From: Myxococcales bacterium
GTDB taxonomy: Bacteria; Myxococcota_A; UBA9042; JABWCM01; BTVJ01
Direction of reading: 5' to 3'
Length of the DNA: 64,000 nt
Assembly (NCBI GenBank): GCA_045863395.1
Contig: BTVJ01000022.1
Coordinates: 1-64,000, forward strand
In this document: positions 20,352 through 55,251 of the stretch, piece by piece
Numbering within the stretch: position 1 is the stretch's first letter
Layout: the number at the start of each line of letters is the position of its first letter
The notes under the pieces: generated by a model
Databases searched by the model: none
Seen by the model: only the letters and a program-made list of their open reading frames with translations
What the model was told of the DNA's origin: nothing
Made by a program: the position numbers and the translations under genes

Positions 20352-23300
20352 CTAATCCTGGTTGCCCTTGCCCCCGAAGTTGAACCACTTGATGTCCACG
20401 TCCCAGCTCAGGTTCCCGTCCTTGAGACAGACCTTGAACTCCGCCTGGACGAGCGTGAAGGAGAACTGGATGACCCCGATGGAGACCTCGCCGCCGACGA
20501 GACTGACAGGCACCACGCCGCAGCACTCGTTCTCGGGAATGTCGGTGCCGCACTTGTTGCACTTGGAGCACTTGAGCCCGGCGCCGACCTCCGCGACGGA
20601 GCCGCCGGCTTTGGCCCCTGCACCGTTGATCTTCACGCCCGGCGTCTCCGCGCCCCAGAGCTTGACGGCAAACTGGACAGAGGCCTCGACGCAGCGCTTG
20701 CCGTTCTTGATCAGGGTGCCATCCTCGGTGCAGCAGTCCTCGACCTTGTAGCCGAGATCGAACTTCACCTTGCCGATGCCCGCGTTGAACTCTGCGCCGA
20801 CGCCGACACCTCCGCCGTTCCCCGGGCTCCAGTCACCACCTACGGAGGCCGACAGGCCGCGCGTATCGCTGTTGTGGATCGGGTTGTTCAGGGCGAAGCC
20901 ATAGAGGTTGGACTCGCCGCTGGTGTCGAGCAGCGGATCCGCCGACAGGTAGCGGCCCAGCACCGGATCGTAGTACCGGTTCAGGTTGTAGTGGAGGCCC
21001 GTCTCGGCGTCGTGGTACTGCCCGGACTGGCGCAAGTTGCACGTGACTGTCGAACCAGGAGCCACTGCGGCGCGCCCGAAGGCCTCCGTCTCGACGCTCC
21101 ACGCCTGCCCGCTCCCGTTGACCAGCTTCTGCGGCACACCCCGCTGGTCATTGAGGAACCAGTATGTCTGCGCCCCGTTGCGTTGGTAGACGGGCGCCGT
21201 CTGGACGTCCTGGTCCGGGCGCCAGCCATAGCTGACCAGCACCTGGCCCGTCGGTGACAGCTCCGCGGCCAGGCCCTCGTCCACGTACAGATACCACGTG
21301 GTCTCGCCGCCCACGGTCTTCCGCACCCGCTCGCCGTCCGGCCCGTAGGCGTAGGTGGCGACCGTGGCGCCGCCTCCGTCCTTGACCGCCACGAGCTGGT
21401 TGGCGCCGTTGTACTGGTACTGGACCGTTGTTCCCAGGATCGTCGCCTGTGTCAGGTTGCCGCGGCCGTCGTGCTGGAAGGACGCGACGGACCCGACGGT
21501 CGCGATGCGGTTGCCCGTCAGATAGGTGAACGGCTCCGCACCGAAGGTGCTGGCAGTGAGACGGTTGCCAGCCCCGTCATAGGTCAGCGCAAACGCCGGG
21601 AGACTCGGATAGGTGACCGCGGCAAGGCGATCATTTCCGTCGTACTGGTACCCGTAGCTGGTACCGCCCTCGACGTCGACACCCGTGAGACGGTGGGCGC
21701 TCCAGCTCAGGTCGCGATCCATGAGCACCGTACCGTCCGCGAGCTTGGACACGATGGACTTCGCCCGGCCGTACGTGTCGGACAGGGTCGTCGTCGTGAT
21801 GCCGCCCGGCAAGGTCTGGACCTCCTTACCGACCTGCGGCCAGGCCCATGTGACGGTGCCGCCCGGCTGTACGGCCATGGACGCGAGGCGCCCGTGGGCG
21901 TCGTAGCCCCAGGTGGTCACGGAGCCATCCGGACCCGTGTACCCGACCTTGCGTCCGTCCGCGTCATACTCGTACGCGTAGCTCGCCTCAAAGGCGCCAA
22001 AGTCGGCCGTGACAGTCCGCGTCCTTGCAAAGTCGTCCCAGACGAAGGTGCGGGTCAAGCTCTCGTTGCCGAGGCTCGTGAGGCGCCCAGTGTCGTCGTA
22101 GGCGACCTCGATGACCTGCTCCGGCAGCGCAGGGTTTGCGCCATAGATGGCCAGTGTTGTGGGCCGCCCCTGCTTGTCCCGGTCGAAGGTCATGCGCGAC
22201 CCGGCACTGGACTGCACGTCCACGACGGTTCCGCGGGCGTCATAGGCGTAGGTCAGGGTCTCACCATGGCCGAGCGTGCGGCTCTCGATGCGCCCCGTTG
22301 CGTCATAGGCGAGCTGCACGGAGGTGGCTCCGTTGCCGTCCTTGCGCGCGATGACCCGCCCCGCCGCGTCGTAGGTGAAGGTCTCGACGCCGCCGGCGCC
22401 GCCGGTGGCCGAGGTCACGCGCTTCAGTCCATCGTAGGCCAGGGCCCTCGAAGCGCCCGTCGCCGTGGTCAAGGACGTCTGGAGCCTGCCCTCATAGGTG
22501 GCGCTCTCCATGAAGGTCTCTCCGCTGGAGAACAGCCACGTGGTCGTCAGCAGGTTGCCCAGCGCGTCGTAGGTCAACAGCTCCGAGTGATCCGGGTACT
22601 GGATCTCGATGGGGTTGGCGCCCGCGCCCTGGTAGAAGTAGTTGACCTCTACGCCCTTCTCCAGGCGCCGGACCACGCGCCCGAGGGCGTCCCGGTCCAC
22701 CTCCTGCACCACGACGCCGTCGCGGGTCTTCTTGGCCCGCACCTGCCCGAAGCCGACGTCCTGGTAGGTCACCTCGTCGACCTGACCGTCAGCGCCCGTC
22801 ACGCGGACGAGCCGCCCCTGGGCGTCGTACTCCAGCGTCGTCGTTCGCTCCCAGTGGTCCGTCGAGGACACGAGGCGACCATCCGTGTCGTACTCGTTGG
22901 TGGTGGTCCGACCAGCCACGTCCGTGATGGTCTCGCTCTCGCCGACGACCTTGCCGGCAAGGTTCGTGACCTTTCCGAACGCGGTCGTCGCGAGCACCGT
23001 CTCCTCGGTGTCGCCCGGATAGGTCGTCGCCTCGCGGAGCACGCGCCCCGCCGCGTCATACTCCCAGGTCCAGGTCTGCCCGGACGCGACGTCCTTCTGC
23101 CAGAGCAGGTTGCGCGCCGCATCGTAGAGGGTCTCCGTCACCAGGCCGCCCGGCGCCGTGGCCTTGGTCACGTTGCCCATGGCGTCAAACTCGTAGAGGG
23201 TCACCTGATCCGGGAGCCCGGCCTTGCCCTTGAGGGTCCGCTTCGTCATGAGCCCGACGGCATCATACTCCATGAGGATGGTACGCTCCGCAGGCTTCCC

Positions 23301-53700: not shown

Positions 53701-55251
53701 TCACGGCCCGCAAGCCGCGCCACAGAGGCCCTCGGCCTCGGCGGCGCACAGCGCGTCCCACTCGCCGATGCAGCACCAGGGGTCGGCGCCACATACACAG
53801 TCCTGGATCGTGGAGTCGGCGCAGCCGAGCCCACCATGATCGTCGCAGCAGCTCCCCTCGCAGGGCCCGCAGTCGGCGCCACAAGAGACGCAGTCCTCGT
53901 CCCCGTCACACGCGCCATCTCCGCACGACGGCGGGCAGACCCCACAGTCGGCGGCGCAGCTCGCGCAGGACTCCCCAAGGGTGCAGCTCCCGTCCCCGCA
54001 GACGTCGGTGCAGGTGAGGCCGCATCCGATGGCCTCCTCGACGCAGAGGACGTCCCACGCCGTGGCGCAGCAGAAGGGATCGATGGAGCAGACGCAGCCG
54101 GCGACGCTGCCGTCCCCGCAGCCCGGCTCCTCGGCCGGCGCGCAGCAGTCGCCGGTGCAGGGGCCGCAGTCCGCTGGGCAGCCCTGGCAGGTCTCCGCCC
54201 CGCCGCAGGTACCGTCCCCGCAGCCGGCGCAGGCGCCGCAGTCGGACGGGCACGTGTCGCAACCCTCGCTGCCGTTGCACGCGCCGTCGCCGCACGCCGG
54301 GCAGGCTCCGCAGTCGGCAGGGCAGAGGGCGCAGGTCTCGCCGCCCTCGCAGGCCCCGTCGCCGCACTCGGGGCCGCAGCCGCCACACGCCACGGCCTCG
54401 TCGACGCACGCTGCGTCCCAGGCGATGGAGCAGCAGAAGCCGTCGGCGGCGCAGACGCAGGCAGTGATGTCCGGGTCGTCGCAGCCGGGGGGCCCCTCCG
54501 CGCAGCAGTCGCCCTCGCAGTCGCCACAATCCGCAGGGCAGGAGAGGCAGCCCTCGTCCAGGTCGCACTGGCCGTCGCCGCAGCCGGGGCAGAGACCGCA
54601 GTCCTGGGGACAGGTGCCGCAGGTCTCGCCAGGCACGCATGCGCCGTCACCACAAAGGCCCGGGCAGTCCGCGCCGCAGAACAGGGCGGCCTGCTCGACG
54701 CACAGGGCGTCCCAGCCGGTCGTACAGCAGAAGGCGTCCGTCGCGCATACGCAGTCGGCCACCGCCGCGTCGTTGCAGGAGGGGCGGTCGTGGCCCTCGC
54801 AGCAGCCCTCGGTGCAGTCGACGGTCGGGTCCTTGGGCTTGCAGTCGTCGACGTCAGGTACGCCGTCGTCGTCGTCGTCGGGGTCACAGGCGTCGATGGT
54901 GCCGTCGCCGTCGTTGTCGAGCGCTTGGGAGAAGGGCTCCTTCAAGGCGAGCAGGATCAGCGCCTGGACGTCGATGACATTGCGGACGCCGTCGCAGTTG
55001 AGGTCCGCCTCCGCCTGGGTCACCTTGAGGCACGCGGGCGTGGGGGTCCCGCCGGCGTTGGAGAGGACGAGCAGGATCATGCACTGCACGTCCACGACGT
55101 TGGTCAGCTCGTCGTCGTTGATGTCGCCCGGAGGCACCAGGACCGCCGAGGACAGCGGTCGCGGCACAAGGACGAGCAGGGCGAACAGTAGCAGGAACGC
55201 GCACGTGCCGCGTGAGGCTCGGGGCGCGCCCTGGGGGAGCGGTAAGCTCAT
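53701..55251 (-). CDS. Secreted dockerin-like + TSP3 + Cys-rich repeat protein, 516 aa
   Basis: Hydrophobic signal (AFLLLFALLVLVP); duplicated F-hand motifs GDINDDELTNVVDVQCMILLVL and ADLNCDGVRNVIDVQALILLAL; DNDGDGTIDACDPDDDDDGVPD; repeated CGDGxCxxxExCxxCPxDCG and four CVCxxDx(F/W)CCxxxWDxxC units. Confidence 0.82.
   Translation of the reverse strand: MSLPLPQGAPRASRGTCAFLLLFALLVLVPRPLSSAVLVPPGDINDDELTNVVDVQCMILLVLSNAGGTPTPACLKVTQAEADLNCDGVRNVIDVQALILLALKEPFSQALDNDGDGTIDACDPDDDDDGVPDVDDCKPKDPTVDCTEGCCEGHDRPSCNDAAVADCVCATDAFCCTTGWDALCVEQAALFCGADCPGLCGDGACVPGETCGTCPQDCGLCPGCGDGQCDLDEGCLSCPADCGDCEGDCCAEGPPGCDDPDITACVCAADGFCCSIAWDAACVDEAVACGGCGPECGDGACEGGETCALCPADCGACPACGDGACNGSEGCDTCPSDCGACAGCGDGTCGGAETCQGCPADCGPCTGDCCAPAEEPGCGDGSVAGCVCSIDPFCCATAWDVLCVEEAIGCGLTCTDVCGDGSCTLGESCASCAADCGVCPPSCGDGACDGDEDCVSCGADCGPCEGSCCDDHGGLGCADSTIQDCVCGADPWCCIGEWDALCAAEAEGLCGAACGP

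Follow-up and report, generated by a model that had tools for sequence, protein, structure and literature searches.

The locus studied here consists of three adjacent genes (A, B and C) on the minus strand of a 64,000-nucleotide (nt) stretch of DNA from a Myxococcales bacterium (contig BTVJ01000022.1, positions 1 to 64,000; the window), and it raises the question of whether a giant RHS protein with a leader of the general secretory (Sec) type works together with the products of its neighbours, and as what. The reading that we favour, with moderate confidence, is that of a hitherto undescribed platform of two chains, exported by Sec, for polymorphic cargo; its binding, export and toxicity are what we infer. 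Judged from sequence, B and C belong to a widespread locus, of which they form the two conserved halves. An earlier note on this DNA had proposed a multi-subunit Sec-type RHS machine of all three products; this is supported for B and C, which are tied to each other by synteny, co-occurrence in genomes, domain fusion and a structure model, and is not supported for A as a conserved subunit. The system is also broader than that note saw: a two-chain core with accessory genes of its own, in several phyla. The three genes are:

55251-53701, minus strand: gene A, 516 amino acids (aa); hydrophobic leader, dockerin-like module (residues 41-99), Cys-rich repeats, 89 Cys.
53692-47312, minus strand: gene B, 2126 aa; leader, BN domain, immunoglobulin (Ig)-like spacers, four LamG-like repeats.
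47315-20352, minus strand: gene C, 8987 aa; variable N-terminal arms, stalk of Ig and fibronectin type III (FN3) domains, junction, RHS cage, tip.

Conserved partner genes

52283..53524, minus strand: BN domain (B residues 57-470), conserved all-beta partner domain of ~410 aa at the mature N-terminus.
53438..53524, minus strand: N-terminal strand of BN (B residues 57-85), holding the invariant Cys59.
47315..50461, minus strand: four LamG-like repeats of B, starting near residues 1083, 1346, 1614 and 1870; putative ligand-binding modules.

BN domain: No match was obtained in Pfam or, by sequence, in the PDB, and the fold search returned generic Ig-like matches only (best Z 8.6, root-mean-square deviation (rmsd) 2.6, 101 residues aligned; Foldseek TM ≤0.25); the Pfam matches of B over the cut-off were Laminin_G_3, Big_9 and Cadherin_5, the first of which bears out the LamG-type partner of the earlier note. 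BN was found in 1157 proteins among 7999 scored candidates, with 53–65% identity outside close kin and free variation downstream; in 88 of 90 loci it begins within a few residues of a hydrophobic leader (in the other two it is internal), and its Cys is invariant in 42/42 aligned rows. As a single-sequence query of the genome collection, BN retrieved just 2 loci; in the own-phylum sample it occurred in 4 of 301 genomes.

Co-occurrence and synteny: Among 107 genomes of the own class, BN was present in 6 and the junction of C in 4, all 4 of them BN-positive; among 201 genomes of a second phylum (that of L001, labelled Elusimicrobia) BN was present in 10, the junction in 9 and both in 8. A metagenome scan gave 471 confirmed BN places, the best 80 of which were analysed (not dereplicated, mostly short contigs): at least one partner gene was present in 67, a transglutaminase-like gene in 52, a rhodanese-like gene in 35, a C-type stalk/RHS gene in 23 and RHS in 17. 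In 82 loci, 167/167 partner open reading frames (ORFs) share the strand of BN. The synteny expected of all three genes was thus seen for B and C and not for A, which had no A-like match in the same 82 loci.

Accessory genes: The transglutaminase-like and rhodanese-like genes, overlooked by the earlier note, are by sequence the conserved accessories of the system; their profiles were built from these loci, and Pfam identity was confirmed on one member each. The first family retains the catalytic Cys, His and Asp; the second is without the active Cys. The window holds neither gene; candidates for action in trans were found in the same genome on contigs C10 and C2 (transglutaminase-like) and C4 (rhodanese-like). 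The plasmid of Methylomonas koyamae carries a cohesin gene, a 4657-aa RHS protein, rhodanese-like, transglutaminase and BN genes; in Eleftheria terrae stalk and RHS are two genes, accompanied by ankyrin, BN, a full gsp cluster, rhodanese-like and transglutaminase genes.

Several loci depart from this arrangement. Tandem stalk or IPT/beta-helix genes stand before the RHS gene or around BN in L009:2715-14414 and L016:126-16028, which suggests that the chains number more than two, or that one partner serves several cargo chains. L063:1-9125 and L062 are near-identical, one having its RHS gene frameshifted in a Gly-rich linker (assembly error or slippage); the RHS gene is likewise split in L023. 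PEP-CTERM genes immediately follow the BN gene at L031:14003-14662 and L074:14787-15464.

Predicted joint between B and C

25281..25553, minus strand: CarboxypepD_reg (transthyretin-like) domain of C, preceding the junction.
25179..25265, minus strand: junction strand (C residues 7351-7379, WEVV motif), the strand that C is predicted to supply to the first Ig domain of BN.
24507..25178, minus strand: MSP/PapD-like Ig domain, with its last Cys-bearing hairpin (24507-24614) after a Gly/Pro insertion of ~100 aa.

Natural fusions: The junction was present in 50 of 60 BN proteins of 3722–5000 aa, 49 times upstream and once downstream of BN; the insert between the two is variable (72–631 aa; one ambiguous case, 1541 aa). 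A second BN-first fusion was found in G316 and a junction-first fusion in Nostoc PCC 7120. Profile-profile comparison of split with fused forms gave E 9.5e-74 and 2.1e-92, and the junction strands and the lone Cys are kept in the split forms. P0216 and P0217 hold two junctions and BN in a single chain. P0187 was considered as a case of RHS inside the loop and rejected: YD repeats lie between the junction match and BN, followed by a second hairpin-like stretch, but the core motif is missing.

Structure models: BN alone (AlphaFold) was obtained as tandem beta-sandwiches of pLDDT 80, falling to 44–54 at residues 1–20, of which the first ~16 are below 50, and to 37–46 at residues 251–270 (hairpin 248–269, likewise below 50). 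For a 712-aa stretch of the fusion P0182 the pLDDT was 90.1 and pTM 0.80, with disorder confined to the Pro/Gly linker; here the first strand of BN is a run of 29 residues at pLDDT ~97, the BN hairpin reaches 89–97, and the WEVV segment forms a separate 29-residue strand. The joint was read from the per-residue pLDDT and structural-alignment spans of P0182: single Ig chains align over residues 94–97 to 425–430, a span that takes in the WEVV strand and the first domain of BN; 2r39_A: fusion Z 9.3, rmsd 2.7, 104 aligned, BN alone Z 7.0, 89 aligned; 2ymt_A: fusion Z 9.5, rmsd 3.3, 106 aligned, BN alone Z 7.3, 94 aligned; for 2r39_A, 2ymt_A, 3mnm_A and 8k2k_A the fusion aligns 12–15 residues more than BN alone and scores 1 to 2 Z units higher. 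The remainder of the junction is the MSP/PapD-like domain (1grw_A: Z 11.0, rmsd 3.2, 110 aligned), and the fusion model as a whole matched no solved structure (TM ≤0.15). Strand complementation is predicted from these models, C supplying the strand missing from BN, and formation of a B–C complex by strand exchange is regarded as highly probable.

Donor-strand complementation is familiar from chaperone-usher pili. The likeness, an Ig fold predicted to be completed by a strand of another chain, is mechanical only: BN loci are without an usher or PapD chaperone gene, and two giant, different proteins would be joined once, with no polymerising.

Cage, tip and cargo

20856..24305, minus strand: YD/RHS shell and core, with the R..DP and PxxxxDxxG (PIHNSDTRG) autoprotease motif retained.
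20355..20855, minus strand: C-terminal tip, 167 aa, Gly-rich beta pattern, 8 invariant Cys in 4 aligned relatives.
19084..20151, minus strand: downstream gene, 355 aa, with a leader and, by eye, a MYXO-CTERM-like tail.

The cage of C was recognised by PF05593 (8.8e-65), TIGR01643 and TIGR03696; in its autoprotease motif (GRYLSADP...PIHNSDTRG) both Asp and the Arg are retained and Pro is substituted. The shell is preceded by ~330 aa made up of an Ig domain and Gly/Pro/Cys linkers. The tip gave no match in Pfam, in PDB profiles or, at ≥0.9, in the Atlas, it matched no toxin family, and it is common only to same-class or close relatives; its Gly-rich alternating beta pattern suggests possible membrane insertion. 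The 355-aa downstream gene has no homologue in the genome or in the fetched loci and is not evidently an immunity gene.

A paralogous locus lies on contig C10 (G000:C10:41203-70436; B', transglutaminase-like gene, C' of ~6900 aa). BN (60%), stalk, junction, shell and tip are common to both copies; the N-terminal 3000 aa of C' are wholly different. The C10 tip is followed by three small lipoprotein genes (75–96 aa; no homologues in the fetched loci), which are candidate immunity genes.

With the generic CarboxypepD part of the query counted in, the junction retrieved 2334 clusters at 50% identity (E ≤0.001). Of the best 150 of these, 27 reach a full RHS core and 89 stop within 200 aa, the others being partial or having other tails; the 27 RHS tips fall into 22 groups. 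Directly after the junction stand a HINT domain in G111, a helical domain in G304 and G316, and a Cys-rich domain in G523. Downstream of the RHS gene, ankyrin or small genes were found in L009, L074, L085, L090 and L140, the ankyrin genes being those of L009, L085 and L090; L074 has an orphan PT-HINT module. As read from sequence, the arrangement of tips, HINT and ankyrin across the family is the pattern of a polymorphic toxin locus. That the cargo of the present locus is toxic appears fairly probable, and for the family as a whole the odds are higher.

Four shell-less junction proteins (P0146, P0277, P0308, P0343) end in tails with a beta/Cys 'ECCKD'-like motif that recalls the window tip by eye; they were not recovered by the tip profile.

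Proposed mechanism and its alternatives

The products of B and C would cross the inner membrane by Sec and fold with disulfides in the periplasm. A transglutaminase-like enzyme may process or cross-link the chains (either cutting or cross-linking is possible), aided by the catalytically dead rhodanese-like protein, both acting in trans here. The complex would then leave through the type II secretion system (T2SS). In the complex the first Ig domain of BN is predicted to be completed by the long strand of C, and the first strand of BN itself to become ordered; surfaces or targets may be bound by the variable arms (propellers, fibrinogen-like, LamG), and the RHS core would cleave the tip, which would be set free on contact. 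Altogether, the assembly of B and C outside the cell as one stalk, locked by strand exchange and displaying swappable, likely toxic cargo, is considered rather more probable than any other course.

Where B is held may differ between relatives. In G311 and G314 it ends in a MYXO-CTERM-like tail, so that there the cage would be anchored by B to the producing cell. B of the window ends in LamG repeats; here the complex may either be retained through binding to glycans or be released.

A number of findings weigh against this scheme. P0182 is a homologue (~36% to BN), B and C themselves not being the modelled chains, and its alignment had 60 rows vs 30 for BN alone, a depth that by itself can raise confidence. 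A B–C disulfide through Cys59 was tried and rejected, cysteine parity giving no support (57 odd/40 even, p 0.10); the Cys count of fusions is odd in 35 of 49, and covariation is weak, the hairpin-tip Cys being missing in 3/3 fusions without the BN Cys vs 6/47 with it. No C/RHS gene was present in the DNA examined for 57 of the best 80 BN loci, loci of related organisms count as non-independent, and gsp genes were found in the fetched flanks of just 4 of those 80. Among the best 150 junction proteins, 89 stop within 200 aa past the junction, so that many are without a cage in the same chain. The window's B has no membrane anchor (none was seen at its C-terminus), and a sorting-type tail was found in just 4 of 120 BN proteins. 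Finally, the window tip is conserved in same-class relatives (28–35%) and does not vary, and in the window, as in G311 and G314, no immunity-like gene is evident behind the tip; for these two reasons this copy may not be an antibacterial toxin.

The last two findings, together with the 8 invariant Cys, the lack of a toxin-family match and arms made of more than 5,000 aa of repeats and four LamG repeats, would also suit the same B–C stalk serving here as an adhesin or recognition scaffold, with cage and disulfide-rich tip in a structural or signalling role of the kind seen with teneurins. This is the strongest of the alternatives and still unlikely: the autoprotease motif is intact, tips are polymorphic family-wide with ankyrin neighbours and HINT modules, and the C10 tip is followed by the three lipoprotein genes. 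A toxin aimed at distant prey, moreover, makes an immunity gene unnecessary.

It is improbable that B and C are co-regulated exported products of a gene split that no longer bind, each completing its own fold or doing so through its own copies. The unanchored B fits such a split, and in a 46-sequence tree fused BN and N-terminal BN form separate clades, which gave the split forms time to diverge. Both strands and the lone Cys are nevertheless conserved in the split forms, the first domain is incomplete in the model of BN alone, and BN and junction co-occur tightly in two phyla.

More widely, the parts may belong to a cross-phylum toxin-delivery apparatus in which two giant stalks are held together by a strand-swapped clasp and any cargo (RHS cage, HINT toxin, helical insert) is displayed at their joint with the help of dedicated assembly factors (the transglutaminase-like enzyme and the dead rhodanese), the clasp being also fused within giant CARDB/Calx-beta proteins; this is put forward tentatively, at somewhat less than an even chance. 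If true, the fused-clasp CARDB/Calx-beta proteins of cyanobacteria, Planctomycetota and Verrucomicrobiota would be unrecognised toxin carriers too. In such giant proteins (P0166-P0215) hypervariable Cys-rich inserts, often hydrophobic-helical, were observed between junction and BN; they are possible unrecognised toxin cargo.

The two-chain platform offers a set of defined parts that are conserved across phyla: the partner domain BN, the predicted joint between the chains, a transglutaminase-like enzyme that looks active, and a helper of the rhodanese-like family. Cultured carriers exist (Methylomonas koyamae, Eleftheria terrae, Nostoc PCC 7120). It would give names to two large families of domains that have no Pfam entry and flag a pool of unknown cargo domains; if the joint is as stable as strand exchange in pili, it would provide a new protein coupling pair.

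Gene A

The dockerin-like assignment of the earlier note stands below threshold (Dockerin_1, 21.8 bits; Pfam cut-off 22.9). The two modules of A reappear in 10 and 20 other, unrelated ORFs of the same genome, and no A gene lies upstream of the C10 paralogue. A is probably a co-expressed, lineage-specific passenger. An obligate machine of three subunits, in which A docks by its dockerin-like module and is a true subunit, is improbable. The 8-nt gap between A and B and the RNA contigs of two studies that span A-B-C and end just upstream of A (see below) speak for it, as do the dockerin-like motif at the C-terminus of 17 of 120 BN proteins and the cohesin genes of the Methylomonas and Eleftheria loci; against it stand the lack of A in the 82 loci and before the C10 paralogue, the recurrence of its modules elsewhere, and the absence of any cohesin family (Pfam) from B and C. 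By the last point and the sub-threshold dockerin, the locus also differs from dockerin-cohesin assemblies.

A divergent Cys-rich protein of secreted type with the 'CC..WD..CV' repeat of A is encoded on the plus strand (window 55565-57532); no Pfam match was obtained for it.

Export route and comparison with known systems

Profile searches of A, B and C detected no PAAR, VgrG, SpvB, WXG or RTX family, in line with what the earlier note had found for PAAR, VgrG, SpvB and WXG; neither C nor the window has PAAR, VgrG, prePAAR or adjacent vgrG/eag. In the 97%-complete genome SpvB was not found and PAAR appeared only below the cut-off (TcA was not among the searches). The genome carries a type VI secretion system (T6SS) sheath gene on contig C11 and a T2SS gsp cluster on contig C26; the latter, together with the folded, disulfide-rich nature of the Sec substrates, favours T2SS as the exit route, which is reasonably likely. 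Lectin activity and prey or kin recognition, also proposed in the earlier note, would be further putative functions.

That C is an ordinary T6SS, Toxin complex (Tc) or teneurin-like RHS protein with added adhesion domains is scarcely credible: its core does match T6SS Rhs, teneurin-like and TccC structures by sequence and a T6SS sheath gene is at hand, but no PAAR, VgrG, SpvB or NHL family precedes the shell, the genome is without SpvB and without PAAR over the cut-off, and C has a Sec-type leader, 226 Cys and its own conserved gene set. The evidence supports an RHS machine of Sec type, distinct from T6SS, Tc and teneurin-like proteins. From T6SS Rhs effectors and the B/C cages of Tc (ABC), with which it shares the YD shell and the aspartyl autoprotease core, C differs in lacking the PAAR/VgrG/SpvB modules, in gene neighbourhood and in its features of an oxidising compartment.

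Sec-exported polymorphic toxins: RHS-repeat toxins exported by Sec/'T2SS', with a signal peptide, RHS stalk and variable C-terminal domain, are described in the available portions of Zhang et al. 2012 (PMC3482391). The likeness lies in leader, RHS and variable C-terminus, and in the ankyrin-type immunity and HINT of relatives. As far as those portions extend, that class has no signature neighbour genes, whereas the B/C family has transglutaminase-like, rhodanese-like and BN partner genes; the transglutaminases given there are inactive and fused, whereas the gene of the B/C family is separate and keeps C/H/D. The same source proposes that a conserved partner protein, MafA, distinct from MafB, holds MafB. 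MafA is a lipoprotein of Neisseria; the sequence of BN is related to no Pfam family.

Teneurin-like proteins (TLPs): In the accessible part of PMC13018210 these are Sec-targeted, with adhesion-domain N-termini, YD shell, PxxxxDPxG autoprotease and polymorphic tip; they are common in Myxococcota, are defined by FN-plug, NHL and YD shell in a single chain, and have a delivery route stated to be unknown, so that how Sec-exported RHS cages reach their targets is an open question there. C is alike in outline and has a transthyretin-like domain before its junction; it is without NHL before the shell (no NHL family in C, so that the propeller part of the definition fails), depends on a second gene, and its matches to TLP structures are limited to shell and core. 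As to an FN-plug, the junction profile gave no sequence match to teneurin/TLP chains, and the junction fold search found, from teneurin, only the transthyretin-like domain (Z 10.0, rmsd 2.6, 86 aligned).

In the openly available full-text literature, subscription journals and supplements lying outside this scope, the B/C gene set was not found described; PMC13274458 and bioRxiv 10.1101/2023.11.21.568195, in the parts available, share related words or giant genes beside gsp loci and do not concern this system, and the supplements of PMC3482391 and PMC13018210 could list such proteins.

Assembly and transcript support

The three-gene locus is real and no artefact. A, B and C are uninterrupted minus-strand ORFs without internal stops, 11,629 aa combined; the common orientation, the 8-nt gap and the ATGA overlap of B and C given in the earlier note were confirmed by an ORF check, and its figure of ~11,600 aa ending in a YD shell and RHS core agrees with this total and with RHS_repeat and Rhs_assc_core matches over the cut-off. 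The start of B was set at the ATG behind GAGG (first start of the ORF finder: TTG at 53884). Third-position GC was 0.90–0.92, and the longest stop-free runs in 50 shuffles were 429/541/564 aa vs 516/2126/8987 aa in reality (a small margin for A); on codon-position GC and this comparison all three are taken as genes. The N-terminal hydrophobic stretch reported for each was found again (15-residue means: A 2.79, B 1.62, C 1.97); that of C has no obvious cleavage site.

The source contig is C22 of an 8.77-Mb, 97%-complete assembly. Near-identical DNA was present, among the matches listed, in 20 runs from 7 studies (sludge, wastewater, bioreactor, aquatic), one of them possibly the source. Contigs from 4 runs of 4 studies, aligned to 38000-57900, are colinear over 38000-55300 and bridge both the A/B and the B/C junction; one strain with 319 differences preserves the reading frame by paired indels. 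All four contigs stop ~590 nt past 38000, breaks that are attributed to a stretch of at least 39 nt near 37403 that recurs on contigs C39 and C17; support for the 3' 17.6 kb of C (20352-38000) comes from the source assembly and from homologues.

55302..55314, minus strand: possible 5' end of a putative A-B-C transcript, 50-63 nt upstream of A, where RNA contigs end.

RNA-labelled runs of 2 studies gave one contig each, extending from past 38000 to 55302 (adapter loose end) or 55314, and DNA contigs run past these positions. This is a weak hint that A, B and C share one transcript, the contigs being strandless and RNA libraries being liable to contain DNA. A promoter scan upstream of A gave nothing exceeding chance; promoter and terminator scans gave 2 weak sites downstream.

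Arms of gene C and neighbouring genes

35091..47168, minus strand: five units of ~580 aa made of 41-residue repeats, with Cys-rich linkers; units 36–42% alike.
44331-44957, minus strand: single fibrinogen-like module within the arms.
32481..35099, minus strand: Cys-rich acidic repeats (TIGR02232/DUF4215, myxobacterial) alternating with four unnamed beta modules.
25554..32480, minus strand: Ig/FN3 stalk, its C-terminal ~1350 aa conserved family-wide.

Pfam matches of C over the cut-off were fn3, DUF4215, Fibrinogen_C, CarboxypepD_reg, RHS_repeat and Rhs_assc_core. The TIGR02232 repeat and the best named match of BN point to Myxococcota as the probable lineage of the organism. The 41-residue-repeat units are likely beta-propellers (Atlas matches of one unit stayed below 0.9, all of them to propeller families); they were not found in the C10 paralogue or in the fetched relatives. 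Propeller, LamG and Cys-rich modules form arms that are specific to the lineage and exchangeable: the C10 paralogue, with its different N-terminal 3000 aa and no A, marks the arms of C as exchangeable and leaves BN plus stalk, junction and cargo as the core. Two more large ORFs of the same genome (G000:C36:42780-54032 and C6:116584-126009) have weak RHS-like matches and no junction.

Elsewhere in the window, exported-type genes lie at 1-3276, 9672-11648 and 17019-18989 (IgGFc-binding). At 59035-63999 a minus-strand ORF, open at its 5' end and encoding at least 1654 aa, has beta-helix and PD40 repeats, and a leader-bearing protein of ~1060 aa is encoded at 3536-6715 (minus strand); the latter has a PPDK_N-like domain, which is odd for an exported-looking protein.

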